Shown: positions 1-64,000, counted from the stretch's first letter. The stretch: 64,000 nt of DNA from Paraspadella gotoi (GCA_051294375.1 CM119267.1:9077709-9141708); one strand, 5' to 3'. The notes: a model not told the origin generated them from the letters alone. A program made the numbers and translations.

Positions 1-974
1 AAGGGCGGGGACGGAGTTAATGGTGTGACAGCGGTTTTCACGTTCCACGAAGGCTCTCAGAAGATAGTCGTTATTGGATGTGAGGATAAATGCGTTTATT
101 TGCGTGATTTTTTCACGGGAGTTCTGTTCAGGTAGCGATTGTAGTTTTGTGCAACACTCGGGAGAAAATAAAAATCAATCCCTGTTTTTAACCCAATGCC
201 ATAAAATTTAGTATGCGTTTCGATCATGTCATATTCCTTTGGTTTTTTTTTTACAGAACGGTATCTGGGCTGGCGACCAATCCGCGTTTATTGCGCTTGT
301 CAGCCTACGTCAGCCGAGGGTCGAAGCTTTTTTTACCAACTTCTACGGGTCTCTTTTGTTACGATGCTCATCACCCGACACATTATATCCAGATTGGATC
401 TTTTACTGGTGAGTGAGCTGCGATGTCTCGAAAGTTGGGATATGTCATGTGTCATATGTCATTCACAGTTTGCGAATTATTTTTGCAGGATTTTCTCCGT
501 CGGCCTTCGCGCTGACTGCCGACGACTCTGCTCTGATTGGTGGAAAAGGCATGATAATTATTCTCTCGCTTTATGGAACTTCGAACCCAGGCAACGGCCT
601 CATATTTTTGACAGATTTTTCGGATTGGGTCACCTCCATCGCGTCGTCAGGAACTATGGTGAGTTTTTCTGATAAAATTATAAAAATCGTCGTTAACTAA
701 AATTTGAAAAAATTAGGTATATTACGGATACCGCGAAGGTGGTGTCAAAAGATTGGACATTTCCTCTATAGAAAGACACTCCTGTGGTTGGGCTTCTTGT
801 CAACTTGTTTTTGCAAGGCACTCCGATCTTCGAATTCATTTGCATCGGCATCATTTGAGATTGGGCGATAAGAAGAGTCGGGTCATTCGATGCCTGTGGG
901 GCTCTTGCAATCAATGGCTTACTCTTGGGGAGCAAAACACGGACTTTGCTCATTTGGAAACGCATCTCGGATAA
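1..974 (+). CDS. ZNF106: 3' part of WD40-repeat + C-terminal C2H2-like zinc-finger protein, ZNF106-like (partial; exons ~1-131, 257-408, 489-658, 717-974)
   Basis: Spliced frame gives WD-like strands (IVVIGCEDKCVYLRDFFTGVLFRTVSG) ending in HSCGWASCQLVFARHSDLRIHLHRHH...RCLWGSCNQW...AHLETHL, like the ZNF106 C-terminus; GT-AG introns keep the frame. Confidence 0.65.
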
Positions 975-1116
975 TGCATAACGGATAATAAGGACTTTTT
1001 TGTTGAGCACGATTGTGCCTGTGATTGTCGCCTGTGATTTCATTTGGCTCCTTTTTTTACATGTTTTTTTCTATAATGTTATCGTTTTTGTAGACGCAAT
1101 CCTAAAGTTGAAGGCG

Positions 1117-1554
1117 ATGCCAAAAGGATCAATTCCTCATCCTCAAAGCAGCGACGAGACTATTCGACCCTTTGCCAATGGCACGATCTCGGAAGGTGAA
1201 GGAAGAGGAGAAAGCGGCGCCACAGATTTAGCGCGAGATGCCGCTCCCGACGTTGTTGTGGACCAAATAATTTCCATCGAGCCTCGCTTCGTCCCTGAAC
1301 GAATTTCGCCACCGTCAACCAGAAAGCGAAAGCGCATTCTCATGGAGGATCACGCTCGAACCAGTGGCTTTGATAAATCCTTTGTTCCAGAAAAAATCGT
1401 CGACGCCTCGGAAGCTTCCGGCGAACTCATGTTTCTCTTGAAATGGACCCACTCGCATAGTTTGGAGTGGGTCTCTGCTCGACAAGCGAACGTCAAGTGC
1501 CCGAAAATGGTCATCGGGTTTTACGAGAATCGTCTCGGCTCTGTAAAAGATTAA
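1117..1554 (+). CDS. HP1/CBX-family chromo-shadow-domain-only protein
   Basis: GFDKSFVPEKIVDASEASGELMFLLKW...VSARQANVKCPKMVIGFYENRL matches the chromo shadow domain; basic RKRKR hinge; no chromodomain seen; ATG at 1117 follows tttttgtag acceptor. Confidence 0.85.
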   Translation: MPKGSIPHPQSSDETIRPFANGTISEGEGRGESGATDLARDAAPDVVVDQIISIEPRFVPERISPPSTRKRKRILMEDHARTSGFDKSFVPEKIVDASEASGELMFLLKWTHSHSLEWVSARQANVKCPKMVIGFYENRLGSVKD

Positions 1555-1671
1555 AATAAAATTTTGATTGAACTTTCCATTGTTTATTTATTTAGCTCTT
1601 CATTGATAGTTTCACCAGTTTGTTTTCGTAAGTTTTTTGTTAATTAAAAGTGAAAGAAAAACTTTGGGAAA

Positions 1672-2098
<427 letters not shown>

Positions 2099-2578: not shown

Positions 2579-4443
2579 ATGCCAGCCGAAAATTTGGAAG
2601 ACGAGGGACTTCCGAAGAATCCCGATTTAGAGTTAGCTCAAGTAAGATACAATCAGTCGGTGGAGGCGAATCCCTAGAAATTTACAAATCTTTTTATACT
2701 TTCTTTCCCTTAGTTGAAGTTCCAGTTGTCTCAGGACGGCCATAAAAATGACGCGGCCATGAAGCAACGACTCCTAGCGGCCATGGAAAAGGATGCAATG
2801 GCGAAATTTTACGAGGACACCTGCACTGAGTTTGGGTGGCCGGTCGACCGCGTCAAGTTGGAGAAAATGAAGGAGGATAACAACAAACGCCTGACCGAAC
2901 TGGACGAAAAGATCGAAGACGCCGAAAAAAACCTTGGCGAGACAGAGATACGCGACGCTCTTCTCGCCAAGGCCGAATATCTCTGTAGAATCGGCGACAA
3001 GGACGAAGCTCTCACTGCCTTCCGGTGAATTTTTTTTCAATAGCGAACGGCTAAGCTGATGAAAATGATAATTCTCGTGGAGGAGGGGGAAGTCCCATAC
3101 ATTCGAATGTCTTGTTTCAGAATGACTCACGAGAAAACGGTGTCTCTTGGGATGAAGTTAGACTTAATATTCCATCAAATTCGTATTGGACTTTTCTACA
3201 TGGACCACGATCTTATTACAAGAAACCTCGAAAAAGCTCAAGAGTTGATTGAAAGTGGCGGAGACTGGGACCGTAAAAATAGATTAAAGGTAAGCTGAAA
3301 TTGACAATGGTAGTACTCTCTGGAGTCTGGACACATGCAGTTTTTATTTACTGACCATTACGTTTTAAATCAATAGGTTTACAACGGCTTATATCAAATG
3401 TCCATTCGAAATTTCAAGCAAGCCGCGGAGTTATTCCTCGATACAGTGGCAACATTTACTTCGTACGAGTTAATGAGCTACCAAACTTTCGTAACCTACA
3501 CTGTTTACTGTTCCATGATCGCGCTGTCACGGTGAGGAAAATTAAAAAAGCGAAAGAAATAATCAGTCACTTAATTAGTTAATATTATAATTTATTTTTA
3601 TTTAATTAATTTCAGTCCGAAGCTTCGTGAGAAAGTCGTAAAGGGGGCGGAGATATTAGAAGTTTTGCATTCCCTACATGATGTTTACGAATATCTGTTC
3701 TCCCTGACCAATTGTCAATATGCGACATTTTTCAAAACTTTAGCGCGCGTCGAACAAAACATCAAGATCGATCGCTATCTCCACCAGGTTTAAAACTTTT
3801 TTAGAGACTTTTAAAATGGGCTCTCCAAGCTCCTACACAATCTCACCGTATGTCGTTAAGGTTGCCCAACTCGATCAATCCGCATAACTATAACAATAAA
3901 CTATGCCATTAAGAGTTTCTGAAAAATGTGTTTTTTGTTTGTTTTTTTTAAGCACTATCGGTTTTATGTCCGAGAAATGCGTGTGTTGGCATATGCGCAG
4001 CTATTGCAAAGCTATCGTTCTTTGACTCTGACGTACATGGCAAAAGCATTTGGCGTCTCCACGGAGTTCATTGACAAAGAGCTGGCAAGGTAAAGCAATA
4101 AAAAAAAATTCATTGGGTCAAAAGGAAGTTGTTGATTGCTTTTTTGGGTCATTTTTACGTCAATCATTTAGAATATAAACCAAAAACTTTGAATTCATTT
4201 TTTGGTGATCCCAAGTTTAAGCGTTTGGTTATCGAAATTATTATTGTGGGACTTAATCTCTCTGGTGAATTTTTCCCCAGGTTTATTGCGGCCGGACGAC
4301 TCCATGCAAAGATAGACAAAGTCAACGGAATAGTGGAAACGAATCGACCTGATAGCAAAAATCAGCAGTACCAAAATGCTATTAAGCAAGGAGATCTGCT
4401 TCTCAACAGAATACAAAAACTTAGTCGTGTCATAAACATATAG
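2579..4443 (+). CDS. PSMD6: 26S proteasome regulatory subunit RPN7 (7 exons)
   Basis: [72 protein letters not shown]...[17 protein letters not shown]. Confidence 0.97.
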
Positions 4444-4565: not shown

Positions 4566-5516
4566 ATGAACAACGAATTTAACTCCATCGCTTCTAAACT
4601 TCAAAGTCTAGAAGAGAGCCTTATGAGTATCATTTTGGAAGCCACAGTGAAAATTTCTAAACTCACCGACAACAACATTTTCATTTTGATTGAAACGCCT
4701 TCAAAATCGCGAAAAATCTGCGGCGATGAGTCGTTGGTTCGTGATTTTCAAAGCTTAAGACTCCTTCCACGACCCGATGACTCTGAATTCACATTGGAAA
4801 AACCCTCATTGTGCCAAAAATGCTCAAGTGTCGACGATTCTCTGACAGTGTGCCCAACTCGGATTGAAAGAGATTTTAATACTGACTTTCAAAATAACCT
4901 GAATAACCGAAAAAGAAAAACGGAGGATGTTGCCCAGCCTGTAACGCCTAAATTGGTGAAAATGGAATCCGTCTCGATGACAATAACTGATCATGATGTT
5001 GTCAACGAAGTAAACGAGTCCGTAGCTGACGACAATGATATTTTTGATTTGGAAAATGCTCAAAACGTTGGTATCGTTTGCCGGTCTACAACTCTTCCTT
5101 CGAAATTTCCAGAGATTTACGAAAAAGATGGATTTGCTCTTGATGGAAACCTTGTTCGCCAAATCGTTGAAGAACATATTACTACTAGTAAAAAGGGGCA
5201 AGCACTTCTTTCGAATGAATTCGATTTGACCATTGCGGGTGTAAAGGGATTAAAAGAAACTTCCGTTCTTTCATCTTTACTATGGGACATCGCCAAACAT
5301 TTTGTATTTGAAATTAAAAAATACGTGATTGTACCGAATGACCGAAGCTTTTGGAGCTCAGCTGCAGACTGTTTGATTGATGTGGTTTTTATGATATTTC
5401 CTGGTTTAGCGTACAAAAACAAATCCGATTGGAGGCAAAGGTTATATTGTTATGTGAAAAAAATACAAAATACGAGAAAAAGTTTTCAAGTTGACGGATT
5501 ATTCGGCGCAAATTGA
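4566..5516 (+). CDS. Uncharacterised 316-aa protein, paralogue A of a local pair
   Basis: Intronless ATG ORF; N-terminal ~60 aa clearly similar to ORF 7219-8193 (LEESLMSIILEATVKISKLTDNNIFILIE vs MEENLIVIILEAALKISKLTDNRVFVLVE); basic NLS-like RKRK. Confidence 0.8.
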   Translation: MNNEFNSIASKLQSLEESLMSIILEATVKISKLTDNNIFILIETPSKSRKICGDESLVRDFQSLRLLPRPDDSEFTLEKPSLCQKCSSVDDSLTVCPTRIERDFNTDFQNNLNNRKRKTEDVAQPVTPKLVKMESVSMTITDHDVVNEVNESVADDNDIFDLENAQNVGIVCRSTTLPSKFPEIYEKDGFALDGNLVRQIVEEHITTSKKGQALLSNEFDLTIAGVKGLKETSVLSSLLWDIAKHFVFEIKKYVIVPNDRSFWSSAADCLIDVVFMIFPGLAYKNKSDWRQRLYCYVKKIQNTRKSFQVDGLFGAN

Positions 5517-7218: not shown

Positions 7219-8193
7219 ATGGAAGTTTCTTCAAAACTTGAAACAATTCTTCATAAACTACATTACATGGAAGAAAATTTGATTGTGATTATACTTGAGG
7301 CGGCTTTGAAAATTTCCAAATTGACTGACAACCGGGTTTTTGTACTTGTTGAATCTTCTGACAATCGACGCAAAGTTTTCGGTGATTTTGACTTGGTCAC
7401 TGATTTTCAAAATCAAAAGCTTAAGTCGAATTTGAACGATCAATTTATTAACCTTCTAAATTCCAATGAAGATCATGAAACCTTGCATGCTACTCCGGTA
7501 GATGAAGTCAACAAAACTTTATCACCCAATAAGAAATCCCTGAAGAGAAGGTTCAATGAAGTTCAGGACGCGGACTTACGCCTAGCTCCTTGTAAAAACA
7601 TGAAATTTAACACCGACTTTACTGAAACTACTCCTCTCATCAGTTCTCCACCTAACAAAGGATTCACATTTTCCTCCGAAACTATCGAGTTATTAGATGA
7701 ATTGGATCATTCCGAATGTAATGCTGCAGTCGAAGTCGATCGAGATTCAACACTTCCCATTAACTGTAGCCCTCCCAACTTTTCGGAAACGGTGCAGACA
7801 AAGCGCATTTATAAATCGGGAAATTTCATTCTCAATGCTCACGTGGGTGATTGTAATCCCAAGGGTTTTATTGGCAAAAGTAGAAAAGCCAAGGCACTTA
7901 AATCCAACAGTTACGATTTTAACAAAATTGAGATAAAAAACACGAAGGAATTCTTGGTGAATTCATCGTTGATCGACGACACGACAATACATTTTTTTGA
8001 ATGTATTTATGATGTACCAGACGATGACAGATTTTTTACGACGGCGGCCGTCTATTTAACGGACTGTTTCTTGGAGGTCTTTCCGGAAATTTCGCAACAC
8101 AAAAAATATTTATGTAAAAGTTTTATTAATTCTTTACGAAATAACTCTAGCAGAAATGTTGAGAAGGGGAAACTAACTGGATCGTTGGTTTAA
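7219..8193 (+). CDS. Uncharacterised 324-aa protein, paralogue B
   Basis: Intronless ATG ORF sharing N- and C-terminal blocks with 4566-5516 (VPDDDRFFTTAAVYLTDCFLEVFPEI vs VPNDRSFWSSAADCLIDVVFMIFPGL). Confidence 0.8.
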   Translation: MEVSSKLETILHKLHYMEENLIVIILEAALKISKLTDNRVFVLVESSDNRRKVFGDFDLVTDFQNQKLKSNLNDQFINLLNSNEDHETLHATPVDEVNKTLSPNKKSLKRRFNEVQDADLRLAPCKNMKFNTDFTETTPLISSPPNKGFTFSSETIELLDELDHSECNAAVEVDRDSTLPINCSPPNFSETVQTKRIYKSGNFILNAHVGDCNPKGFIGKSRKAKALKSNSYDFNKIEIKNTKEFLVNSSLIDDTTIHFFECIYDVPDDDRFFTTAAVYLTDCFLEVFPEISQHKKYLCKSFINSLRNNSSRNVEKGKLTGSLV

Positions 8194-8364: not shown

Positions 8365-11300
8365 ATGGAATTTGTTCCTACTCCTCAAGGCCTTGGTCCC
8401 AGCTTTATACCATGTTGCGAATGTGGGACTCCGATTGAGCCGAACCCGGCTAATATGTGTGTTCCATGTCTGCGTTCTCGCGTAGACATTTCCGACGGAA
8501 TCCCTAAGCAAAGTGTCTTGTACTTCTGTAAATCTTGCGAGCGTTATCTGCAGCCCCCTGATACCTGGATAGTTGCCGCGTTGGAATCTAGAGAACTGCT
8601 TTCTGTCTGCTTGAAGAAGTTAAAGGGACTAGGAAAGGTTCGAATGATCGACGCCGCTTTTATTTGGACCGAGCCTCATTCCAGGTACATACATATTTTG
8701 TCTAGTAAAAGTCAAAAACCTGGAAGCAGTTGAGCGCTATATCGTTGTCTAAATTGGAAAATCGTACTTTAAAAATGTTTTCTCGCTTTCACATTTTTTC
8801 AGGCGAGTCAAAGTTAAGCTGACCATTCAAAAAGAAGTCCTAAACGGTGCCATTCTTCAGCAAAGCTTCGTCGTTGAGTATATCGTCAACTCCCAAATGT
8901 GCTCTGATTGCCAGCGAGCTGAGGCTAAAGATTATTGGAAGTCCAATGTGCAAGTTCGGCAGAAGGTGGCTCACAAGAAGACCCTTCTCTACCTGGAACA
9001 ACTGATCCTCAAGCACAAGGCGCACACGCACTGCGTGGCAATCAAGCAAGTTCACAATGGAATTGACTTTTATTTTTCAAAGAAGGAATTTGCCCAACGG
9101 TTCGTGGAATTCCTTAAGTCTGTCGTCCCCATTCGTTGGCAGTATTCCCAGACGCTCATAAGCCACGACGTCCATAATAATACCTACAACTACAAGTCTA
9201 CTTATTCTGTGGAAATTGTTCCCGTCTGCAAGGATGACGTGGTGTGCCTGCCGAAAAAGTTAGCCCAAAGCATGGGCAATATGAGCCAGGTTGCTTTTGT
9301 GCAACGCGTCACTCAATCCGTGCAACTCATTGACCCCGAGACGCTGAACAGAGTTGACATTGGCGATAAGCAGTTTTGGAAAGAACCATTCTCAAGCATC
9401 TGTTCGTCGAAGCAGTTGATGGAGTTTACTGTCATGGATATCGGTTAGTCACTGACGACTTGCTATTCATTTTTCGTTAGATTAGACAAATACTATATTT
9501 AATTTTCTGCTTTTAATGTATATGACGTTTAGATTTGGTGAACCCTGATGATCTGAGATTTGACGCCTCATGGGGAAACCTATCGCAACGCCACGTCTTG
9601 GCGGATGCTTGGGTCGTACGATCTTCGGAGTTGGGCATTGCCGGCGACGGGGACGACATGATTCATTGCAAGACGCACTTGGGTTTTCTTTTAAAGCCTG
9701 GCGATACAGTGATGGGCTATGATTTGAGGAACAGCAATAATAACAACGCTGAATTCGAGAAGATGAAGAGGAATGGGGTAACATTTAAAAATATTTTGAT
9801 TTGCAAAAGGGATTTTAAGTCTTAAAAGAGTAGTGAATTTGTGATCCCGGCGTAACCCTTTGTCGACTTTTAGAACAGAAAGAACGCATTCGTGAAACTA
9901 GTCATTCCATAAAAGAGACCAAGGGGGTTCCCTATGCTTGTATTTAAATTTTTTCAATAGGCCATTTTTTTAATATTTTTTTTTAAATTAATTTTTTTTT
10001 CAAAAAAAAATTGTTATAAGCTTTTTCTTATCATTTTATATAAAATTTAGTGTAAATCGAATAGTATTTTTTCAGGGCTTTCTGGTTATATAGTTTTAAT
10101 CTTTTTAATGCATCCCGATAAAAAGATATTAAAGGTTATACCAAAAAAATCATATTTTTTTATAATAATTGATAATTGTGATTAAACTTTCTTTCGTTGT
10201 GTTTTTAGATATTTGAAATTAAAGACGATGTCTTGATACAGCAACGATTTTATTTTTATTGTACAGACAAGTTTCGGCTTTCATTCAAGCCTTCATCAGT
10301 GCTTTTGATGCACTGATGAAGGCTTGAATGAAATCCGAAACTTGTCTGTACAATAAAAATAAAATCGTTGCTGTATCAAGACTTCGTCTTTAATTTCAAA
10401 ATAAATAATTGATAACAAGTTTAAAAATATTTTTATTATAAATAAAAAAATTAGTGATATTGTTTAATATATAAGACAAAAATTCATTTTATTATTATAA
10501 CAAATGCTTTACTTTATTTTTGTTCTAATCTATATGGCAACCTTACTTATACCATTATCTGGCTAGTAACAATAACATTCAGCCCACATCGTATCTTTAT
10601 CCTCAGAAAAAATCCTGAAATATTTTTGGATTCTTCTAAAAATGTGGATCTCCAGTAATAAAGTTTTACCTTTTAATGGGTTAGAGGTAATAAAAAGTCT
10701 TTTCGAATAAAAGCCACCATATAAAATTAGTTGGGGCATAAGTTGTTATACTAGTCTCGTAATGCTGTCAGGAAATAAAGTAGAGCAGGTGAAATATCAG
10801 AAGGTTCAGGCTTGTACTTGTTAAAAAGGTACACTCACTCTGGAAATGGTGGGGACAGGGGTGTTTAGAGGGTTAGAAACCTTCCACAAAGCCACGGGCA
10901 TCACGATATGGCTTCTTGCTTGTTTGAACCGATCTGAGAGAGATTTTCCGGTCTCGCCCACGTATGCTGCTAAGCAGGTTTGGTTGCCCTTGCCTGCACA
11001 GGCCACCCAATAGACGGCTCCTGAAGTTTGCGGTGTGAAGATTCCCTCCTTTGCTAGCACCCGCACCAATGCATCAGTGATCCCCTGGTGGTAGGGGAGG
11101 GACAGGTGGCCCACGTTCTTGAGACGCTTCTGCTTATCTCCCATTTGCGCTGTGGTGGGCGCGGTTGGTCCTTCAGCAGCAAGGCCTCGTTCTACCTCTT
11201 TGGGGGTGGGGGTTGAACTTGCGTCAGCGGTTACTTACATTACTGCTAATTTATCGTAAGCAAATACGATGTTTGCTCAAACTTGTTTTTGATTTTCCTT

Positions 11301-11628
11301 AAAGGCTCAATTTCCCGACGTTCTATTGGTGAAAAAAGTATATGCTGATCGAAGCGCCCGCGCCCGAAGACGCAAGTGGAAACTAAAACATCTGGACCGC
11401 GACGTTGAGGAGGACGTCAGCAGTGGTGAGGCCGATTACGAAGATTTCTTGGAGGACCTAGAAGAGGATAAGAACATAAGAGATGGCGTCAACATCTACG
11501 TCGACAAAAAGAAGCTTCACTCGCGCGAACCGAATGCTGAGGATGATATTCCGGAAATCAGCCTGGCTGAAATGATGGAGGACTTGGACATTGAAGACGA
11601 ACCAATGGGAAATGGGGACGAAATATGA
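8365..11628 (+). CDS. NMD3: 60S ribosomal export protein NMD3 (exons 8365-8684, 8803-9443, 9533-9777, 11305-11628)
   Basis: CCECGTPIEPNPANMCVPC, FIWTEPHSRRVKVKL, VQVRQKVAHKKTLLYLEQLILKH, PDVLLVKKVY, acidic C-terminus with NES-like ISLAEMMEDLDI. Confidence 0.97.
10261..10302 (-). ncRNA. Minimal type-I hammerhead ribozyme motif, - copy with intact stem II
   Basis: Reverse strand reads gca CTGATGA a GGCTT gaatga AAGCC GAAAC tt GTC tgt, followed by AATAAA. Confidence 0.75.
10308..10351 (+). ncRNA. Minimal type-I hammerhead ribozyme motif (Penelope-associated), + copy
   Basis: tgca CTGATGA a ggcttgaatgaaatcc GAAAC tt GTC tgta: core CUGAUGA/GAAA, NUH = GUC (10344-10346), very short stem III; one mismatch in stem II. 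Confidence 0.7.
10750..11200 (-). mobile_element. Penelope-like retroelement remnant (RT C-terminal linker + GIY-YIG endonuclease fragment)
   Basis: ORF 10821-11144(-): LSLPYHQGITDALVRVL...SGAVYWVACAG...CLAAYVGETGKSLSDRFKQ, the PLE GVVY-C..C-YVGETGR.L..R signature; GC-rich island in an AT-rich intron. Confidence 0.85.
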
Positions 11629-14940: not shown

Positions 14941-14944
14941 AGAG

Positions 14945-50135: not shown

Positions 50136-51111
50136 GGTCCTTTAAGCGTTTAAACTGTGAAATTTTATATTTAAAATGTTTTAAACAATTAATATTAAAA
50201 TTTACCAACGTAAAATCTGTGATGCTAATGTTATTTTGAACAATCGTCCGAAATAAACTTATTGTAAAAAAATATCCGCGGCGTAGGTGTTATACTAGTA
50301 AATCCCGAATGTCAAATTATAAAGGGAAGATAGCTATCAAACCTGAAATGTCTCACTTTTTAGCTTCCCAAAAATACGGGAAATTAGCATCTCGTTTAGT
50401 AGCACGCCTAATACTTAAGAACTCAATCATTTCCTTTCATGGCTGCGGAAACGTTAGAACTATAGAAATATAGTAGCAATTACATGGCGCTCTGAAGCGA
50501 ATCTTTATTATTTTGTCCGCGCCTTTACTTATAAATGTTTTTCATTCATTTCAGGCTTGTGAAAAATAATATTACTTTGGTAGCTATTAATGATTATCGA
50601 GAATGAGGCTTAATGTTTTAGTTGTAATTGCATTTGTATTATGCAGTTTCTTTATTGTTCATTTAACGATTTACAATTATTAACTAGTCAAATTTATTTG
50701 AATTTTGTTTCCATTGGTTTCAGTTTGTTATATCTTTGTTATATTATATCGTTCAACTACAAAGGTTTAGTATTTTATTAACACGTGCCTTCCTGAGAAT
50801 TTTGTGAAATTTTCGATTGCTACGATTTCAGAATGAAATTTCTCGTAACGAAAAAATCAAATTTCTTTAATAAATTCGTGCCAAATCTGTTTCCCCACCC
50901 CACCGAGTGTTCTGACTCTGAGGTCGAGAATATAAACTAATATCTTTTGGTATTTAGACCGCTGTTCCCCATTCCTTTTCCTGTGCCTGACGATTCGTGA
51001 ATCCACGCCTTTTTGCATAACCCGCATTTTTATTTTGCTGTATTTATAGACTCAATGTTTCAGATTTTTCTTTTCTACCATCCTATACATCATTTCACAG
51101 GGGATTCAATA

Positions 51112-51873
51112 ATGACATCGCACCAACATCTCGTGGAAATTCTTTGCGAGGACGAGAACGTTTTTCTGTGGACCGAGTTCGAAAATGATGTCGCCAATTT
51201 GATCCTTCACGATGGGTCTCGCCCATTCAAAGGATCTCTCGCGCTTGACCTCGACTCTTGGCGAAAACCCGCCGAACTTTTTGAACTCCAGCCTGAGACC
51301 TTGATCGACATGACCCGAACGGCCTTGACGTCGAATCTTAACCCTGATTATAACTACGAGCTCGTGACTTCTGAGTCCGACGCCCGTCTGACTTGGAAAC
51401 AGGAGGTTGAGGGAACGGGATTGTCGCAAAAGATCGGCTCCGTCAAGTTGTTTGGTGTGACCTCCGAGACGGATGTTCGTTCCGCTAATCGACTCTTGTT
51501 CGGATTCGTGGCGCGAAACCTCGCCGAATGCTCGGCGTCGAACGCCAAATTAGAGGTCGAAAAGGCAACGCTTGCTGAGCAAAGACGGGAAGCTTTGGCC
51601 AGGTATAAAGACTGCGTCGATTCGGTCGTTAATCGTGAGACAGAGCTGTTCGCAAAATTCGTGGAGGTGTTAAACGAAAAAAAGACTAAGATTAAAAAAC
51701 TTAAGCACCAACTAAGTGAAAGAGGAGAAGTTTTGTCCGATTCCCTTACTGATCAACATAATGACGAAGGGAATCTCGTTCGTGACTCACATTCCGAAAG
51801 CGTTGCAACGTCTTCGAGTGGTTTGTGTCTTTCAAAAATAGGCGATGATTCTTCCGACGATGACCATCTTTAA
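51112..51873 (+). CDS. XRCC4: DNA repair protein XRCC4
   Basis: Head domain LILHDG..F.G, LTWKQ, IGSVKL; coiled coil RYKDCV...ETELFAKFVEVLNEKKTKIKKL (Lig4-binding region). Confidence 0.9.
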   Translation: MTSHQHLVEILCEDENVFLWTEFENDVANLILHDGSRPFKGSLALDLDSWRKPAELFELQPETLIDMTRTALTSNLNPDYNYELVTSESDARLTWKQEVEGTGLSQKIGSVKLFGVTSETDVRSANRLLFGFVARNLAECSASNAKLEVEKATLAEQRREALARYKDCVDSVVNRETELFAKFVEVLNEKKTKIKKLKHQLSERGEVLSDSLTDQHNDEGNLVRDSHSESVATSSSGLCLSKIGDDSSDDDHL

Positions 51874-51930
51874 ATCTATATATGTTTGTTTTATTTTATA
51901 TATATTTATAGAGGTACAGCACAAAAAAAA

Positions 51931-52410
51931 ATGCTCAATCTTGCTCACGCCGGTCTGACTGAGCTTAATCGAGACAATTTGTCTGACGCAGATGACGTAA
52001 AGACTATCTCTGTGGTTGATTTAAGTCACAACAAAATGATAAATTTGGAATTTTTATCATGTTTTACCCAACTTCACACGCTGATTCTGGATCACAATAA
52101 CATAAAGACGCACGTTCGGTTTCCTGAGTTGCCGTCCTTACGGACTTTGTGGATGAACCACAACAATATCAATAATTTACCCATTTTCATGGAAAAAATT
52201 CAGGCTAATTGCCCAAATATTAAGTATTTGAGTTTGATGAACAATCCGTGCGCTCCCAGTTATTTAAACGGCGGTACTGTCAAGGCTTACCGTGATTACC
52301 GACAGTTCGTAATCAGTAAACTTTCCTCGCTCGAGCATCTTGATGATCGAATTGTGTCAAAGCAGGAACGCTCCGACGCGCTGAAGTGTTATGGCGCTTT
52401 TCGTCTTTGA
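51931..52410 (+). CDS. LRMDA: Leucine-rich melanocyte differentiation-associated protein-like
   Basis: LRRs LHTLILDHNNI, LRTLWMNHNNI, YLSLMNNPCAP, DYRQFVISKL..LDDRIVS.QER. Confidence 0.85.
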   Translation: MLNLAHAGLTELNRDNLSDADDVKTISVVDLSHNKMINLEFLSCFTQLHTLILDHNNIKTHVRFPELPSLRTLWMNHNNINNLPIFMEKIQANCPNIKYLSLMNNPCAPSYLNGGTVKAYRDYRQFVISKLSSLEHLDDRIVSKQERSDALKCYGAFRL

Positions 52411-52486
52411 TTTTGGATTTTACTGGGTGTGGGATGGTGATGGTGATGTTAATAAAATACGTATTTATAAGTAACAGAATTATAAT

Positions 52487-53628
52487 ATGACGTCCCGATT
52501 TCGCATTCCCGCCGACCTAGACTCTGACGACGATGAAGCCATACCGTCGACTTCGCATTTCAAACCGGGTCGAATTCTTTCTCATTCGAAAATAACTGCC
52601 CAGAATAAGGGCGAGGACGGCGCGAATCAAAACGTTTCTAAATCCTCATCTCAAGAAACATCTACGATAGCGCATTCTAGAGACGCAAACAAAAACAGCG
52701 ATTCGATTTCTGCCTTTCCATCCGAAATCCCCCGCCCAACTCCAGAGGCTGGTGGTCCAACTAATTGTCCCACCACCTCGAAACCCGCAAAAGCTGTTCC
52801 CTCCAATTCTATCATCGTTAATCCCAAGCAACGGGGTAACCCCATTTTAAAACATTTGACTAACGTGGTTTGGGAATACGGGGATATTGTTCCGGATTAC
52901 CAGGTCCGTGAATCGACATAAACTGTAAACCACTGCTTTCTTCGTCCACGTTGAAATCTTTCCCCGATCCATACAGGTTGGACTGACTTCCTGCGTTTTG
53001 TTCTTGAGTTTAAGATATCATAATCTTAATCCGGATTATATTCAATCGCGGCTCGAATCTTTAGGAAACATGTATGAACTTAGAATACTACTCGTACAGG
53101 TAAAAAACATCCATGAAAAATTAATCGAATATACATGTCACACAAGCCGATATTGATATTATACATTAATCTTAGGTGGACGTGAAAGATCCTCATCCTT
53201 CTTTAAAAGAGCTCGCCCTCATGGGCATTTTGGCGAATTTTACGCTCATGGTAGCCTGGTCCCCAGAAGAAGCCGGGAGATACTTGGAAACTTATAAAAT
53301 CTATGAAAATAAACCTCCAGGTAGGGCTATTTATTTTTTACGTTTTTGGTCGAAATTACTTTTTTATTTAAAATTTTTTTTTTTCATTTTCACAGACGCC
53401 CTTAAATCGCGACCGGAAACAGATTTTCACTCTCAAGTAGCGGACGCGCTCACGATAGTCAAAGGCGTCAACAAGACGGACGCCGCCACTTTGTTGGCGA
53501 CGTTTGATTCGATGGCATCGCTTGTCGGCGCCTCTGAAGAAAAACTCCTTCTTTGTCCTGGACTCGGACCTCAAAAGGCTCAAAGACTTCGTCAACTGTT
53601 TGATACTCCATTCACGAAGTGGAAATGA
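52487..53628 (+). CDS. ERCC1: DNA excision repair protein ERCC1 (4 exons)
   Basis: [49 protein letters not shown], Hh[11 protein letters not shown]...CPGLGPQKA. Confidence 0.97.
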
Positions 53629-53729
53629 CCCCGTCTTATATTTTTCTCTAATTTGCAGACTTTTTTATACTATAATTACAAAAAAATGTTTTACAATGAT
53701 AAACTGTTTGGTTTTTTCAAGTCAAAATT

Positions 53730-54366
53730 ATGGCTTCGACGTTGCGTCGCTTCGCGGCTTCGCGAGCAGTAATCCCAGTGATAGCGAACTCTGCCCTAAC
53801 GACGGTCTCCTCACGGGCGTTATCTTTTCGACCTCCTTCTATTCCCCCTTCTCCCACACTTTTGCCTCCATCGGCCGGTTCCAATCCTTTCCCGATCGTC
53901 TCGATCCTTGGAACTGACCCAAAATTCCGAGGAAAGCGCAAAGCATTTCAGATGATAGCCAAGAACAATCGGCGTAACCGACACCCGCAAACGAGGCGGA
54001 GGTTCGGCTGGTACATGAATGAAGGCATGTGGGTCGACGAGAGTCATATCATTGTCAATCAGAGGGCGTTGAACGTATACCCCGGAGAAAATGTTGGCGT
54101 GAGAGACGACAAAACCCTCTACGCTTTGTGCGGAGGTTAGTAAACTTGGAGATTCTGAGACACTTATCCTAAGTCTTGCGAAAAAAAAATAAAATTCTCG
54201 GCTCTTTTGCTTAGGAAACGTTTTGACTTCGATGGAGGAGCTCAATCCTTATCCCGATAGCCCGTTGTATGCCGCAGTTCAAAACGGCGAAAGAATTTTT
54301 AGACTGTTTGTCCACGTTATTCCTCCGCCAGAGTCTCAAATGTTTAAACTCGTTAGCTTAGTTTAG
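53730..54366 (+). CDS. MRPL27: Mitochondrial ribosomal protein bL27m (2 exons)
   Basis: IIVNQRALNVYPGENVGVRDDKTLYALCGG|...PYPDSP...FVHVIP...FKLVSLV; presequence. Confidence 0.88.
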
Positions 54367-54421: not shown

Positions 54422-56910
54422 ATGGATGTGAAAACTTTTTCAGGCACTTTTCCAGTAAAGAAATTTGACTTTACTAAAATCGCAATGATGGGCGATTGCA
54501 CTCGCGAATCAGCACGAGAGATATTAGAAACATCGTCTCCGCCAAGTCGGCCTCAAAGTTCCAAAAGAAGAAAACGCCCTGTCGTTCTTCCAAAGGACGA
54601 AAGAAAAGCGATATCGCCCATTCTCTGCTGTCGTCGTCCGAGCGTTCGTCTCTACGGCACCAACATCGTTTTTAAAGAATGGAACCTACCCCCGGTCGGT
54701 CTAGATACTGCCATCGTCGTTGATTTTCTTCGCGGACGAATCCACCCGACGTCAACCCTCTGCCACGTCTGCGCTTCCTTGCGATTGAGCCTTTCCTTCG
54801 CTGAGACGAACGCTTTAGGAACCCATACTCGTCACGCCATCGCTGTCGAGGTTGACGGACGGATTCTAGCTGTCGGGGAGGGGGAATCGAGGAAGATGGC
54901 GAGGAAAATGGCTTCGCGGCTGGCCATGTTGGTTTTACTGAGTAAGTCGAAATGGCAATCAGGGTAATTTCGTCACCACCTGGCTAAGGACAGGGCTTCG
55001 AACGAACTTTCTAATTTGATCCTTTTTATTTTCGGGCTGCCATTTATAATCCTGAACAATCATTGTAATGGAGTTGACTTCCTTTATCTTAACCCGCCCC
55101 GTTTTTGGGACTCAGATAAAACAGAAGACGAACTACTCGACTACGTGGAAAATGATTGTCTTCAAGTTTCGGTCGACTCGAAGGGTCGCCATCTCGTCGT
55201 GAAAACAGTTGCTTTTTCTGTCGAAGCTTCAAGCGCGGCGAAAGACACCAAAGGATTAAATTTCTTCGATTCTGAAAGAGAAACCGATCCCGTCGTTCGG
55301 CTGAAATCCTTTTGCCGAAAATATGGTATTTGGACGCTAGTTAGTCAATAACAGTCATGGTAAATTCGTGGTTGGCTGATTAATTTTTTAAATCCCTCTT
55401 CAGAATGGGCTATTGCTTTCGATGTGATTCCCCGCGGCGATTTTTTTTCGTGTAACGTGACAATCGCTTTTGAAAACGTCGCTTTCGCTTCTGACACCAC
55501 GCGAACCGGCGCCATGCGATCTGCTGCCGCAACGGCCTTCGATTTTATCACTCGTACCTTGTCTTTCCCTCCTGAAATTTTAAGACCCAGAGCTGTCGCA
55601 GAAATTTTGGGCGAACTGGTTCAAGTATGCTGTTCATTACTAAACACGGAATTATTAATATTTCTTTAACTAACCTTATCATTTGATTGTAAGGAACGAC
55701 GCGGCGATACTCTTCTTCGCCTGAGACTCCTAAACCCATCGCATTTTCGGTCACTCGATGATGCCTCGGTGACGGCGATCATCTTCACTCGTTGCCATGG
55801 AGATCGCGGGGAAGTGGTGGCGATGGCAATTGGTGACGTCCCGGAAATTAAGAAAAGGGAACGCGGGGGTCTGTCCGAAATGACGTCTCTTTTCGTTGCC
55901 CGTCGCGCCTTCTTGTTGTTTCTTTACCGAGAAATCGTGACCTTCTACGACGGTGATGGATACAAGTCCATTTTTGAAGTGAAGATACCTGAGAATTACA
56001 CTTAAATATCGATTTAACGTTTATAGTTTTTACTTTTTTACTTTCAGTTGTCGGACAAGAGTTGTCGGTTGAATCTAAAAAACGGCGTCGAGTTTCACTT
56101 TTATCTTTCTGAGAGCCCTACTCATTCCTGCGAAATTTCTAAACTTTTGGAATGGAATTTACATGGGGTTCAGGTTCTTACCGAAGCTTTCTTATTTTAT
56201 TCATAGAGATTCTGAAAATTAAGTGGGCCTTATGCCCATCTTTAGGGTTTACTACTTTCCCATATTATTCATCCGGTCTACGTAAGTTCTGTATTGCTGG
56301 GCGGCGACGACGGGAGAGAGGTTCTTGACGAAACGTTTCGCGCTGCCTCACTCGACAAAGCGTCCCCAGCCTTCTCTTCCACGAGCTTCAGCCGCAACCG
56401 GCCGTTAGTGATGTCCATTCAAAAACCCAATGGATTTTCTCAGTCAAAGGTTTATTTCATCAATTTGACTAGTGAAATAATGAACACACCTAATGGCTTT
56501 TTTATCCGGCAGAGCGACAGCCAAACTTCCATCAGTCTTAACTACACCGCGGGCTTTGAGTCGGTCGAAATCCTTGATTCTCGAACTGGCAAACCAGTAA
56601 ATTGGTTTCCCCTTTTCCGGGATCAGGAAAATTCTCGAGGCTCGTCCAATCTCCATCACGGAGACACAACGACTCAGAGCCGTGTCTCTCGGGCCTGCCT
56701 TTTCCAAAGATTCCAGATGGCGCTCTTTCACCACGACTACGAAGTGTTTCGGCGGTTGAACCTTTTTTCAGCTAGGTATTTGTCTGAGAAAAGTTGTAAC
56801 AGTTTTTAATAGCCAGTTAGCTTGTTGTTTATGTATTTCAGGGCGAATCGCGGAAGACGACGTCTTAAATACAGGCCGCTCTTAGAAGCCGAAGGTTTCG
56901 CGCGCGTTTA
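54422..56910 (+). CDS. dsRBD + degenerate adenosine-deaminase-domain protein (ADAD/ADAR-like); 3' end uncertain
   Basis: dsRBD AVGEGESRKMARKMASRLAM; deaminase-fold motifs EVVAMAIG, VARRAFLLFLY, FHFYLS, WNLHGVQ|GLLLSHIIHPVYVSS, SISLNY, EILDSRTGK, SRVSRACLF. Confidence 0.8.
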
Positions 56911-57261
56911 AACCCGATTTATTTCCAATTATTTTTCGGTTAATTCGGAAAGATAATTCACTTAGATTTAGAACCTCTCAGATCTTTGTCGATGAGAGCT
57001 TGGCTTTGAAGACATTTTTAGCATTTTTTTAAAATCAGTTGGATACCTTATGTTAATAGTTCGATTTATTTTTAAATTTTATCATGTTAATTCGAGACAT
57101 TGCAGCTGTTAATTTTTCAATTATCCTTCATCTTTGTTAATTTTTCTAATATGAGATGTTATCACGATTTGCATAGTTTGTTTTTAAATTTATTATGTTT
57201 TAGATCGGTGCGTTGCAATTAATTCGTCAGCTATTCCAAACAAGTCAGTCAGGAAGGATAC

Positions 57262-58797
57262 ATGTTGCTCGGTGCCACGATCTTACCGTTAGAGGCGGCG
57301 ATAGATGTGAATATTCCGGAGGCGTCTCAATCAACGTCAAAGCCACGCTCATTTCGTAGTGCCGCATTGGGCGTGTCGTCGTTCGTACCACCGCCGCCTC
57401 CACCTCCTCCCCCCTTGCTTCCACCACCCGCGCCGCCACCACCGCCCTCGACACTTCCGCCCCCGCCACCTCCACTGCCCCTGACGCCTCCGCCGGTGCT
57501 TTCACCTTTATTGATTGATGTTAGTCGGCCTCCTCCGCAGTCTCCGGTAAACTTTGGCACTCCCCCTCCTTGCCCTGCCTTGCCGTGGTGGGTGCACAAC
57601 TGTTTAAACGATTCAGTCGTGAAAGCGAGTCAAAACGGAAACATCGATCCTGTAGCGAAAAATCTCCCTTTCGCGATGAAAGACACTTTGGAAAAGTTTC
57701 TTTATTCTCCGCTCAACGGTGTTCAATCGAACATCGATTATCGAGTCCAGCAAACTGATGGCGGTCGGGCTTTCGTGCGTAATTGTGATAGTCATACAAT
57801 GAATCTTTACGTCGATTGGTACTCATCGAATCTCAACAAAGAACCCAAAAAGCAGCGTTACGAGGAGTCGTTTTGCAAGGGGTCCCCCGGCGTCGATTAC
57901 TTCATGAGCGGGAAAAGGGACCCGGAATATCTTCAATGGATTCGAAGTGGAGGGGGCTGCAGTGAAAGCTTCATCGATTCCCACTGTCACATCGACTTCT
58001 TGATGAATCGCGCTAACTACGAAAACACTTTCACGCAGTACATGAAAGACTATCGGCACTTGTTTCCTCCGAATTTTGAAGGAGCAGTGGCCAATTTCTG
58101 CTATCCAGAATCCTTTTCCAAAGAGGAGTTTGAGAAATGGACTAACAATATCATGGACAATACCGTGACGGTTTGGCAGAGTTGGGGATGTCATCCCAAA
58201 CGAGCCACCGACTACAACGAATCCTGTCATGGCTTTTTGAAGGATATAATCTCACGGAAAAACGTTGTCAGTTTGGGGGAAATCGGGCTCGATTATTCGC
58301 TGTGTCCCACAGCGGAGACGATCGCTGTGCAAAAGAAAGTGTTTGCTCGGCAATGCGCCATCGCTGTGGAAGCCCGAAAGCCGATCGTCATCCATTGTCG
58401 CGACGCTCAAGACGATTGCTTAGAGATTTTGAGGAAGCACGTTCCGGCGGATTGGAGGATTCACTGCCACTGCTTCATGGGGGATTGGCACGACTGTCTT
58501 AACAAGTGGTTGTCGCAATTTTCCAATCTCCTTATCGGTCTCACCAACGTAGTCGGTTTTGCATCAGCCAAGCAGCAGCATAAAGTAGCGCAAGAAATAC
58601 CGATTGATCGGCTTTTACTCGAGACGGACGCTCCATACTTTATTCCGAGACGAATCCCAGAATCTGTGTTGTCGCAGTCTAACCCGGGAATGGCGCTTTT
58701 CACTGCGTCGTCGATAGCAGAAATTAGAAACATACCACTCGCCGACGTTTTAAAAGCCACTAGGGACAACGCGACAAGATTATACGAATTACATTGA
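57262..58797 (+). CDS. TATDN2: TatD-family nuclease, TATDN2-like, with polyproline N-terminus
   Basis: FIDSHCHID, GCHP, GEIGLDY, PIVIHCRDA, IHCHCF, LLETDAPYF. Confidence 0.9.
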   Translation: MLLGATILPLEAAIDVNIPEASQSTSKPRSFRSAALGVSSFVPPPPPPPPPLLPPPAPPPPPSTLPPPPPPLPLTPPPVLSPLLIDVSRPPPQSPVNFGTPPPCPALPWWVHNCLNDSVVKASQNGNIDPVAKNLPFAMKDTLEKFLYSPLNGVQSNIDYRVQQTDGGRAFVRNCDSHTMNLYVDWYSSNLNKEPKKQRYEESFCKGSPGVDYFMSGKRDPEYLQWIRSGGGCSESFIDSHCHIDFLMNRANYENTFTQYMKDYRHLFPPNFEGAVANFCYPESFSKEEFEKWTNNIMDNTVTVWQSWGCHPKRATDYNESCHGFLKDIISRKNVVSLGEIGLDYSLCPTAETIAVQKKVFARQCAIAVEARKPIVIHCRDAQDDCLEILRKHVPADWRIHCHCFMGDWHDCLNKWLSQFSNLLIGLTNVVGFASAKQQHKVAQEIPIDRLLLETDAPYFIPRRIPESVLSQSNPGMALFTASSIAEIRNIPLADVLKATRDNATRLYELH

Positions 58798-60521: not shown

Positions 60522-60646
60522 GCCCTTTATAAGTTTATACATATGCCCATCTGATTTTTTTTGTTTCTTCTCTCCAGTCTCAGTTCAAATTTTTTGGATT
60601 TCCTAACGATAATCATCGGAGCTGCGATCGAACGATCGACTCAGAA

Positions 60647-63291
60647 ATGTCGCAAAACGAAGAGGGTTCACCAGACTCTGACCGGCGCACCCACCTCAGC
60701 CTCGCTCGCCCGGCCAACTCCTCTCTTTTCATACGCAACGTTGCGGATCGCACGACGACCGAGGAACTGAGGGACATCTTCCGTCGATTCGGACGTCTCT
60801 TTGACGTTTACATCCCCAAAGATTACTACAGCAAAAAGCCAAGGGGATTTGCTTACGTCCAATTCGAGGAGGCCGAGGATGCTATTCATGCTCAAGAAAA
60901 GCTCAACTTTGTGCAACTTCATGGACGTCAACTGGAAGTGAGAAAGAATTTTGTTATTTTTTATTTTTATCTCGCCAGATGAGCTTTGTCCCGTCTCGGG
61001 CGAGATAATCGTTTACTATTGCTTTTTTGTGACGTCGTCGTCGTTTAGTATAAGTTAATTTGCATATTACAGTTAGTCACAATGTGAAGGAAATTCAAAC
61101 AAAAAATACTTGTATTTATATGAAACATATCATTTTTAAAAAAATTATATATCTTTCTCTCTTTTTTTTCAGTCGCTGCTTTTTCTGATTCGTTTAAAAA
61201 CGAGTTGAGCTCTGTAGCGGCTGGACTTCTCTCTCTCTCTCTCTCTTTTTTTTTTCTCTCTCTCTCACTCTTTCTCTCTCTTTTTTTTCTATCTTTATTC
61301 ATTTAATTTTTTAAATTAAATTGTGTGTAAATTTTTTCTTTTTTGTTGTGTTTTGGTTTAAGGAGACGAATAATTTATTTGCAACCATATATATATATAT
61401 ATTTATAATAAAATTGTTGTTGCAAATTAATTATTCGTCTCTTTAATTAAATTAAATTCATTAAATTATATTCATTAAATTAAATTCATTAAATTTAATT
61501 TATTTCATACCGTTAAATTTATTTACTCAATGCAATTTATTTCTCAATTCTTTCATTTATTTAAATAAATGAAAGAATTGAATTTAATTCATTCATTCAA
61601 TTAATTTCATTTAGTTTTTAATTCATTACTTGTTTTAAACATTTTCCCATCAATGATTCCTTATCATCATTTAGTGCCACACGGCCGGACAAATTACCGA
61701 CTGTTATTTGCTAGTTTCAGAACTTCGGATCTTACTGTAGTCTGCCACAACATCCCGTCCCGCTTACTAGCATTGACACCAATGGGGCACGAACCAAGAC
61801 TGCTTGGTGGGAAGATATATTTTTCGCTCTTACGCCACCGGGGCTGCGCTGATGGACTCAGGCGGGTGGCGATAGTGAATGTGTTGCCACAATCACGTCA
61901 ATAATAATTGGTTATCATTGCATCAATAATTGGTTATCATCGCATCAATAATTCATTATTATTTCATCAATAATCAATTACTATCACATCAAAAATTCGT
62001 TATAGCATCAATCATTCTTTTTTTTTCCGGATTTTTTTATTAATTTTCTTTGATAGTAACGTCTAGTGCGATCATTATATAAGATTATTGTGCTTAAGGA
62101 CATCTCGCTCTGAACTTATTACTCGTTTCAACGCAGGTTGACTTTGCCAAGGGGGACAGGAAGACTCCTTACGAAATGAAGGCCCAAGAATTGGAAGAGG
62201 AATCCCCCGGACTCGATGGACGTAGAAGTTCCCGCCATCGTCACCATCATCATCACCATCATCGTCATGGTCACGATCATCGCCATCATCATCATGAACA
62301 TCATCGCTCGCGCAGTGACGATCGGATCGATCGTAATCGTCATCGTCATCACAGCCACGGTCGTCATCATCACCATCACCACAACCACCATCGCAGCAGT
62401 GATACTCCTGAACGCACCGACCACCATCATCACCATCATCACCACCGCGACGGAATTGATGGCGACGAAAGTCGCCGCCGTTCACGCGATCAACGACGTC
62501 GTCGTCGCAGTCAGCGTCGTCGTTCGACTCGCCCTCACTCTCAGAGCTCGTCCGAGAAGGAGGAAGATGAGAGAACTGATCGTAGGCGGAGGAAGGCGAG
62601 CTCGAGCTCTTCCTCGGAAGAGAAAGGTAAAGTGATTCCTTGAGAAAGGGGCCTCCCGGTTCCCGCTCAATTTTGATAAGGGAATCGGAAATTTCGGAAA
62701 GCTCAAGTAGAAAGATTTCGAAAAAATGCCCGGGCTTAAAAGGGATAGAAAAGCTAACGATATCGTCAAAAAGGTGCCCATCTTAACGATCAAAAAAAGG
62801 GGAAAAAAAGACGCCAAGACCTAATGGTTGCAAAAGAATAAAGATTCGTTTGATCTAAAGAGTAAATTAAAGGTTTCCTAAGGAAGCGCGGGTTGACATT
62901 GAACAGGTAGACGGATGATGGCATTGTGGGACAAATCGACGGATACTTTCTCCCTTGTCGAATCACATCCTGATACTTGTGATATCTTTCTTTTTTTTTT
63001 CCGATAGAAAACGGGAGGAGTCCGTCGTCGGGGTCATTTGATGACCAGAAAAGGGGATCTCGCGGGTTTCGACGCCCCAAAAGAAATCTCTCCTTGACAC
63101 CGCCTAGAATTTCGCAATCCTCTTCGTTCTCCTGCGACAAATGGCGCCGTTCTTCCTCCGACGCGGCCAAGTCTCATTCCGGGTCTCAGCGAAGCGTGGA
63201 GAGTGGCCTCGACGAAGGAGCCAGTCTCAACGGAAACGTCGGCGACGCAGCATCGAGAGAGCCCACTCCCCCCGGCGATTCTCCGCCTTGA
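60647..63291 (+). CDS. SRSF10: SR splicing factor SRSF10/12-like with His-rich tract (exons 60647-60937, 62137-62626, probable 63008-63291; shorter form stops at 62643)
   Basis: SLFIRNVA, DVYIPKDYYSKKPRGFAYVQFE, |VDFAKGDRKTPYEMK; RS-rich tail. Confidence 0.85.
60963..62060 (+). mobile_element. Non-autonomous element (Helentron/HINE-like family 2), copy 2, with internal AT-rich palindromes and (CT)n
   Basis: ttatctcgcc...ggcgagataa short IR + (gtc)n; catcaataatt tandem units; 3' segment shared with ~6870-7005. Confidence 0.55.
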
Positions 63292-63500
63292 ACGTGGACG
63301 AGAATTTTCTTTAGCTTTAATGAATAATGATTTTTCCTTGTTTTCCTTTTACCCGACGCTACGCAGAAAATATTTTTGCGTTCAGCACTCTTCCCCTCTA
63401 TTTAGTTTCGTTTCGCGTTTTGTTCGGTTCTTTTAGCGATTCTTTTTTCTTTTATATTAAGTAGCTCTCCAATGATCGCGAATCTTGTCGCCAATAGTCT

Positions 63501-64000
63501 ATGGCAGCGGCGACTAAACAGAGCGAGAAGAAACAAGGAAGTTCGCCCGGGCCAAATCCTTTAAAACTGAGCAAGAGTGATTGTGTCTACACAAAATGCT
63601 ACTGCGAAGAAAACATTTGGAAACTTTGCGAGCTCGTTCGAAACTCGCGAGACGCGGCGCTCTTAAAATCGTGCAATGCTGTTTTCATCTCCAACAAAAC
63701 GCGGTCGATCCCAATCTGGCATCAACAATCCAGTGCGAATCCTCCCGTCCAACCGGTAGTATGGGATTACCACGTTATACTGGTGTTTGCCGATGGTCGG
63801 AATTCCTGCGTCTACGACTTGGACTCGGTGTTGCCCTTCCCAACCCCTTTCCCCGACTATCTTGCTCTCGGATTTAGAGACGACGATCTCATGAAACCAA
63901 ATTACAAACGAGTTTTTCGCGTTATCGAAGCGACAGAGTACTTGGACAAATTTGCCTCCGATCGATCGCACATGAAAAGGAAAGACGGAACGTTTAAAAT
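63501..64000 (+). CDS. NTAQ1: Protein N-terminal glutamine amidohydrolase (partial, runs off window)
   Basis: YTKCYCEENIWKLC, VFISN...IPIWHQ, VVWDYHVI, VYDLDSVLPFP, FASDRSHM. Confidence 0.96.
   Translation, partial: MAAATKQSEKKQGSSPGPNPLKLSKSDCVYTKCYCEENIWKLCELVRNSRDAALLKSCNAVFISNKTRSIPIWHQQSSANPPVQPVVWDYHVILVFADGRNSCVYDLDSVLPFPTPFPDYLALGFRDDDLMKPNYKRVFRVIEATEYLDKFASDRSHMKRKDGTFK

Follow-up and report, generated by a model that had tools for sequence, protein, structure and literature searches.

How are 30 mostly unrelated genes expressed when they follow one another head to tail on a single strand, separated by spacers with a median length of 171 nucleotides (nt)? This question is raised by a 64-kb stretch of the genome of Paraspadella gotoi (GCA_051294375.1, CM119267.1:9077709-9141708), which was analysed over its whole length of 64,000 nt and is called the window below. 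Operons have been described in few animal lineages and mostly hold two or three genes, the published maxima found in the accessible parts of the literature being seven to nine, and a run of this kind bears on the number of times that trans-splicing and operons have evolved. Because the 30 genes share one strand and spliced RNA contigs pass through most of the spacers tested, a chain of operons is the likely explanation. In the reading that we prefer, to which we give a probability of about 0.55, back-to-back operons are transcribed from a few promoters, and their multi-gene precursors would be resolved by spliced leader (SL) trans-splicing at unpaired AG acceptors.

Thirty Genes in One Orientation

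Exon models scripted from the whole window place all 30 genes on the plus strand, with both ends of the run open. Together, 29 of the models hold 66 introns with a median length of 80 nt (64 GT-AG and 2 GC-AG); the MSP-domain gene, modelled by its start and stop only, stands outside this count. The curated Pfam cut-off is reached by 23 of the genes, RBX1 stays below it with exon 1 only, and the remaining six have weaker support, namely the zinc-finger gene entering at the left edge and the genes numbered G05, G06, G09, G19 and G20 in Table 1. The open frames of G05, G06 and G09 encode 316, 324 and 280 amino acids (aa), respectively; the Pfam scan assigned them to no family, and their codon use is like that of the other genes of the window. 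On the minus strand there are 390 open reading frames (ORFs) of at least 40 aa, from which 86 lying mostly outside coding exons and 57 overlapping them (at least 85 aa) were scanned; none of these 143 reached the Pfam cut-off, with one weak match below it. The preliminary description of this DNA, made from its sequence alone, had counted 30 genes in one orientation, and the exon models and the minus-strand scan bear this out.

The 29 stop-to-ATG gaps measure 4, 55, 57, 76, 93, 101, 102, 109, 113, 117, 122, 125, 142, 163, 171, 172, 203, 209, 244, 255, 350, 480, 481, 609, 707, 834, 976, 1702, and 2160 nt, and 19 of them are no longer than 250 nt. All 17 short gaps quoted previously recur among them to the base; their lengths are thus exact, whereas the accompanying statement that they are too short for a poly(A) site, terminator and promoter goes beyond observation. 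Such an arrangement of same-strand, unrelated neighbors with short spacers is that of an SL-resolved animal operon, and a one-strand run of at least 30 genes over 64 kb is also that of a kinetoplastid-type cluster.

The run is real and not a product of chance. In 15,000 genes, the expected number of runs this long is 3e-5 if neighbors share a strand at a rate of 0.5, 0.004 at 0.6, 0.2 at 0.7 and 5.8 at 0.8, counting G05 and G06 once, and a same-strand rate of about 0.75-0.8 would be required before such a run becomes ordinary. The chance given earlier as 2^-29 becomes 2^-28, since G05 and G06 are tandem intronless paralogues (31% identity, no known family).

Spliced RNA across the Spacers

The RNA evidence consists of contigs of run X1, mapped on 36200-56190, a stretch that holds 11 of the 30 genes. 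This run contains 0.83 of the sampled words, and its RNA nature was at first a guess that splice joints then bore out: 15 joints were displayed (35 more exist), and as all 15 fall at modelled introns, the contigs are spliced RNA, with the reservation that some exon models were fixed with X1 joints, which makes this agreement not independent.

One contig of 10,733 nt passes from CD225 through G19, G20, dynamin, XRCC4, the leucine-rich-repeat (LRR) gene and ERCC1 into MRPL27, including the spacers of 707 and 976 nt, and from 40197 onward its length equals that of the models exactly (10,362 nt). A second contig, 9,280 nt in length, extends over cathepsin C and RPC3, with 5,836 further letters upstream of the mapped stretch; spliced FAN1 would take up 3,438 of them, and the remainder would pass beyond the MFS transporter gene if collinear. 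Within the mapped stretch there are ten gene junctions, eight of which are bridged by spliced contigs, while one (RPC3/CD225) is unbridged and one was unreadable in the rows displayed. At the contig level, RNA is thus continuous over eight of ten gene boundaries while the introns have been removed. A depth model consisting of the two contigs minus introns agrees with the observed depth within 0.3 in 17 of the 26 touched bins, the other nine having extra depth that comes in part from repeats. Stray DNA is an unlikely source of the spacer cover since a 415-nt dynamin intron has no RNA cover at all, an argument that leans on the usual behavior of the assembler.

Seven larger gaps had been proposed as places where operons might start. 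Two of these, before 41094 and 51112, are not silent, given that the spliced contig crosses both, and the 480-nt gap before RPN7 was missing from that list. In relatives, eight near-full-length homologues sit on contigs merely 87-596 nt longer than the coding sequence, as expected of single-gene RNAs. A practical caution follows for transcriptome assemblies of this animal, which merge up to eight genes.

A Probable Trans-splicing Footprint between RPC3 and CD225

The RPC3 contig, on the upstream side of the single junction without a bridge, ends at 39769, 4 nt past an AG at 39764-39765 that lies behind a T tract and scores highest among the four AGs of the spacer. On the other side, 371 letters of the CD225 contig precede its first joint, but a bin depth of 180 is compatible with no number of genomic letters other than 361. 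Under the assumption that no further contig falls in the bin, the same arithmetic puts the start of the CD225 contig at 39766, adjacent starts yielding 180.26 and 179.74. Since only 361 of the 371 letters would be genomic, ten letters at the contig end would be non-genomic. Ten such letters following an unpaired AG are probably the footprint of trans-splicing, though not in themselves a leader, and they are what a spliced leader would leave at a place where no read-through path hides it.

Acceptor and 3'-end Signals in the Spacers

Splice matrices were built from the window's own 66 introns, and acceptors were searched within 100 nt before each ATG. In 23 of the 29 genes, the best acceptor scores at least as high as the lower quartile of true acceptors; the corresponding counts are 8 of 29 for the reverse strand and 46 of 92 for windows in intron interiors (p 4e-4). 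Dinucleotide shuffles give a smaller shift, with a median score of 6.0 vs. 4.8 in the shuffles (p 0.002). Unpaired acceptors before downstream ATGs are thus present as in SL-resolved operons, with a signal that is modest per gene. Of 19 short spacers, one contains a strong donor, compared with 26 of 78 intron windows. More T than A is present in 28 of the 29 spacers, and a search for enriched 6-mers in the spacers gave no clear signal.

AATAAA is found in 3 of 20 short spacers where 2.3 are expected, that is, at chance level, while it lies within 255 nt of the stop in four of the nine genes preceding long gaps. With respect to putative 3' ends of the Ciona type, this chance-level frequency stands beside a single junction at which the upstream contig ends just past the acceptor. 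For RRN3, the best acceptor AG is at 14911, about 30 nt inside the coding sequence of G09, and for this reason the G09 and RRN3 mRNAs could be mutually exclusive products or, alternatively, one bicistronic message.

Weighing the Explanations

Taken as a chain of operons, the window could be read as follows. Single precursors would start at few promoters, likeliest in the gaps of 1.7 and 2.2 kb and perhaps in some of those of 0.5-1 kb. The leader would join each message at a U-rich AG some 10-100 nt ahead of the ATG, as the acceptor statistics and the one contig end suggest. The upstream RNA may acquire its 3' end at the next acceptor or close to it, with no AAUAAA involved, in the manner of Ciona and chaetognath operons, a view to which the same junction and the chance-level AATAAA point. 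Most likely the window behaves like an SL-resolved operon region, of which class it is a candidate member. Polycistronic transcription, as proposed in the preliminary description, is supported by the eight bridged junctions, the probable leader footprint, the acceptor-like spacers, the few donors and the chance-level AATAAA; the leader itself, the single multi-gene molecules and the few promoters are putative.

Several observations weigh against an operon chain. The ten letters rest on arithmetic at one junction, where a short first exon or an adapter could account for them, splicing at 39765 leaves two upstream ATGs ahead of CD225, and no shared leader was seen among 12 displayed of the 221 loose contig ends. 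The contigs may chain overlapping mRNAs and give neither strand nor single molecule, and 19 of the 30 genes, the left half of the window and the 1.7- and 2.2-kb gaps lie outside the RNA-mapped stretch. Taken singly, only three of the 29 acceptors outscore the shuffles made from them at p under 0.05; an AG is absent from the 100 nt preceding the ATG of G20, and the dsRBD and adenosine-deaminase-like gene has none between the preceding stop and its first ATG, with a good acceptor at 54443 before a later in-frame ATG at 54485, which may be its true start. The contrast in donors is confounded by spacer length, the excess of T over A would be expected of ordinary 3' untranslated regions (UTRs) as well, tests of branch points (9/27 vs. 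18/65) and of upstream ATGs (p 0.19) were null, and Rfam gave no SL RNA match in the window.

Could the whole run be a single kinetoplastid-like unit, in which 17 to 30 or more genes depend on one promoter, trans-splicing resolves the transcript and the larger gaps are long intercistronic regions? The lack of a strand switch in 64 kb would fit such a unit, as would the passage of a spliced contig through the gaps of 707 and 976 nt, the 17 successive genes with gaps under 1 kb, and the excess of T over A in the long spacers too (0.56). Beyond FAN1, about 2,400 letters of the second contig are left over, enough to reach the 2.2-kb gap beyond the MFS gene if collinear. We nevertheless consider it unlikely, given that the gaps of 1,702 and 2,160 nt, outside the RNA-mapped stretch, could hold promoters, that AATAAA follows four of the nine genes before long gaps, that continuity is compatible with internal promoters, and that the published animal maxima found stop at seven to nine genes. 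At the other extreme, the genes might be compact and monocistronic, each with a promoter located within the preceding gene or within that gene's 3' UTR, and with UTR overlap and read-through chaining the contigs. Short spacers alone are no proof of operons, because in the accessible parts of the sources more than 80% of the loci tested in microsporidia give overlapping multi-gene transcripts in the absence of operons (PMC2803860) and the compact genome of Dimorphilus is described as lacking leaders and operons (PMC7854359); a two-gene contig, moreover, demonstrates no single transcript, and the acceptor signal of each gene is modest. This explanation is quite unlikely in our judgement, as it leaves unexplained the 30-gene one-strand run (with a same-strand rate of 0.6, a genome would be expected to hold 0.004 such runs), the contig start at an AG behind apparently non-genomic letters and the chance-level AATAAA in short spacers, and it requires UTR overlaps over 707 and 976 nt.

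A further explanation holds that multi-gene mRNAs mature uncut and that leaky scanning or re-initiation allows their translation, as in green algae, for which polycistronic mRNAs are reported in the accessible text of PMC7896298. The bridging contigs are indeed fully spliced, and the gap of 4 nt between G09 and RRN3 would suit re-initiation. The break with its putatively non-genomic 5' end at RPC3/CD225 and the single-gene-sized contigs in relatives make this very improbable, and a 10.7-kb message with eight coding sequences would be poorly translated by scanning. An operon chain with leader trans-splicing accordingly stays the explanation that we prefer.

Feature Content of the Window

The gene content (proteasome, ribosome biogenesis, DNA repair, RNA polymerases I and III) is in line with the housekeeping trend of operons noted in the accessible parts of two studies (PMC11067885, PMC12460157). 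Coordinates are collected in Table 1.

Table 1. Genes, candidate junction and RNA contigs, in window coordinates (nt).
Feature	Coordinates	Strand	Evidence and remarks
3' part of gene entering from left edge	1..974	+	Last exon C2H2 zinc fingers
Chromo-shadow domain protein	1117..1554	+	PF01393
RBX1	1672..2098	+	PF12678 below cut-off, exon 1
RPN7/PSMD6	2579..4443	+	PF10602, PF21154; 6 introns
G05, intronless ORF	4566..5516	+	Paralogue of G06
G06, intronless ORF	7219..8193	+	
NMD3	8365..11628	+	PF04981
NDUFA13/GRIM-19	12463..13616	+	PF06212
G09, intronless ORF	14098..14940	+	No Pfam or PDB match; stop 4 nt ahead of RRN3 ATG
RRN3	14945..17887	+	PF05327
SMC5, intronless (3.2 kb)	17997..21155	+	Domain and homologue matches
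TMEM70	21359..21973	+	PF06979
RING protein	22067..27977	+	RING families; 7 introns
MFS transporter, intronless	30138..31388	+	PF07690; strong acceptor at 30117
FAN1	31561..36196	+	PF21169, PF08774
Cathepsin C	36360..37812	+	PF08773, PF00112; spliced in RNA
RPC3/POLR3C	38057..39729	+	Domain/homologue matches; spliced in RNA
Candidate trans-splice junction	39756..39769	+	T tract and AG at 39764-39765
CD225/IFITM-family protein	39843..40386	+	PF04505; intron spliced in runs X1 and X2
G19, 799 aa	41094..43795	+	Weak MYND finger; first intron GC-AG; spliced in RNA
G20, 130 aa, hydrophobic segment	44051..44521	+	No family; spliced in RNA
Dynamin	44624..50135	+	PF00350; 14 introns
XRCC4	51112..51873	+	PF06632, PF21924
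Small LRR protein	51931..52410	+	PF12799, PF14580
ERCC1	52487..53628	+	PF03834
Mitochondrial ribosomal protein L27 (MRPL27)	53730..54366	+	PF01016
dsRBD and adenosine-deaminase-like protein	54422..56911	+	PF02137
TatD DNase	57262..58797	+	PF01026
MSP-domain protein, C-terminal hydrophobic segment	59407..60521	+	PF00635; exon structure provisional
RRM/SR-like protein	60647..63291	+	PF00076
N-terminal glutamine amidase, leaves right edge	63501..64000	+	PF09764
Spliced RNA contig, 10,733 nt, 8 genes, CD225 to MRPL27	39766..54136	.	
Second spliced contig (9,280 nt), mapped part, cathepsin C and RPC3	36200..39769	.	

Some of these genes deserve a remark. The last exon of the gene at the left edge has weak AEBP2/WT1 zinc-finger matches (E about 0.002) and its upstream exons are uncertain; the first label of WD40 was dropped for lack of Pfam support. 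The RING protein with seven introns is one that we take to be RNF4-like. DNA-repair genes recur along the run (SMC5, FAN1, XRCC4, ERCC1, TatD and a RING protein). The two GC-AG introns lie in FAN1 (32884-32958) and G19 (41362-41462), the latter being seen as an RNA joint, and the MSP-domain gene does not read through well unless an intron bounded by a GA donor and an AG acceptor is taken out at 59702-59773, which is either a non-canonical intron or an assembly error. Run X2, coded as a different organism and study, has low-depth contigs identical to the window at 37395-37560 and 39924-40304, one of them spliced at the CD225 intron.

Introns and gaps also carry repeats and other elements. Intron 3 of NMD3 contains on the minus strand (10824-11234) a frame of 137 aa with no Pfam match, which resembles a remnant of a GIY-YIG/Penelope-type retroelement. 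A near-perfect palindrome of 189 nt in an intron (10212-10400) is probably a small transposon, and it coincides with the only Rfam match in the window, mir-5014, below the gathering score. Dispersed short repeats of 92-94% identity (16261-16454 with 28810-29002, and 23704-23873 with 24705-24874) are situated in introns and in the 2.2-kb gap, and an NDUFA13 intron has a 17-nt tandem repeat of TTAGGG-like units (12943-13065). In dynamin intron 3 (46300-46450), about 100 X1 contigs overlap, and their depths add up to about 150,000, about 1,000 times that of the mRNA contigs, which would be a very abundant repeat or small RNA; it has no Rfam match.

Phylogenetic Setting

The closest matches of SMC5, the MFS transporter and RPC3 are environmental/Logan sequences at 53-68% identity, followed by molluscs, annelids, hemichordates or Priapulus at 35-46%. 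Three quick/FastTree trees were made on subsets of the matches (40 of 120, 23 of 26, and 72 rows), and in these the window groups with the environmental sequences on a long stem at an open bilaterian fork, outside the group of molluscs, brachiopods and nemerteans and away from Ciona. SMC5 has 34% identity to Ciona SMC5 and does not group with it, and there is no nematode among the 120 best SMC5 matches listed. Two metagenome scans for SMC5 gave in one case nothing and in the other 80 distant loci, the best full-length one at about 35% identity, and a second gene of the window was absent from these 80 loci.

Comparison with Known Operon Systems

The size of the clusters depends on the distance rule that is applied. 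With coding gaps of up to 250 nt, the 30 genes fall into clusters of 3, 2, 2, 1, 5, 5, 1, 2, 5, 1 and 3; at 500 nt these become 5, 2, 6, 5, 3, 6 and 3, and at 1 kb 5, 8 and 17. Published rules, according to the accessible parts of the sources, are 250 nt in the chaetognath, where the longest operon has nine genes and 18% of the genes of Paraspadella gotoi are operonic (PMC12460157), 300 nt in flatworms, again with a maximum of nine genes (PMC12582326), and 500 nt in Oikopleura (PMC11067885), while Ciona operons mostly hold two genes and up to seven (PMC7986045). Since published distance rules give 1-6 genes per cluster, each tight cluster is ordinary, and the earlier statement that the run far exceeds typical animal operons applies at the 1-kb cut-off but not at 250-500 nt. 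What is unusual is the unbroken succession of clusters on one strand over 64 kb or more, the larger gaps tested being crossed by RNA. In the literature searched, in which subscription papers were largely outside the search, no long one-strand run was found for any animal.

Chaetognath operons, as far as the accessible text of the reports on Paraspadella gotoi (PMC12460157) and Spadella cephaloptera (PMC2481426) goes, resemble the window in having co-oriented housekeeping genes less than 250 nt apart with proteasome- and ribosome-related members, and the poly(A) site of the RPS14-PCNA operon (PMC2481426), 3 nt from the next acceptor, is like the near-abutting contig ends at RPC3/CD225. They differ in length, nine genes at the longest as opposed to 30 on one strand, 17 of them with gaps under 1 kb. 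Six gene names of the window had no match in three supplementary PDFs of PMC12460157, although its operon-table spreadsheet, which was not covered, may bear on this. In Ciona intestinalis, as the accessible parts of two papers have it (PMC1488885, PMC7986045), the upstream RNA likewise ends at the downstream acceptor, AATAAA is mostly absent and unresolved multi-gene complementary DNAs are detectable. Unlike in the window, only 173 of 310 trans-spliced Ciona genes are co-oriented with their upstream neighbor.

In operons of C. elegans, AAUAAA lies about 100 nt upstream, whereas in the window AATAAA is at chance level. Caenorhabditis SL2 operons and those of Oikopleura dioica share with the window U-rich spacers of about 100 nt and unrelated housekeeping genes placed head to tail, within what the accessible text of PMC1488885, PMC7986045 and PMC11067885 reports. 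C. elegans differs in its dedicated SL2, and Oikopleura in its spacers of 23-30 nt.

Kinetoplastid directional gene clusters hold tens to hundreds of almost intron-free genes behind one start region. Such clusters are named as the dominant mode there in the accessible text of PMC1488885, and the long one-strand run of unrelated genes together with putative leader splicing recalls them, unlike the 66 cis introns of the window. Trypanosome-like directional clusters in an animal lineage, with one promoter for 17 to 30 or more intron-containing genes that are all resolved by leader trans-splicing, would be twice or more the length of the longest published animal operons found, and we regard them as doubtful here. 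If true, a 30-gene run with RNA across spacers of up to 1 kb would mean that an animal nears the promoter-poor organization of trypanosomes with many cis introns retained; alternatively, the run would mean that chains of operons are maintained on one strand.

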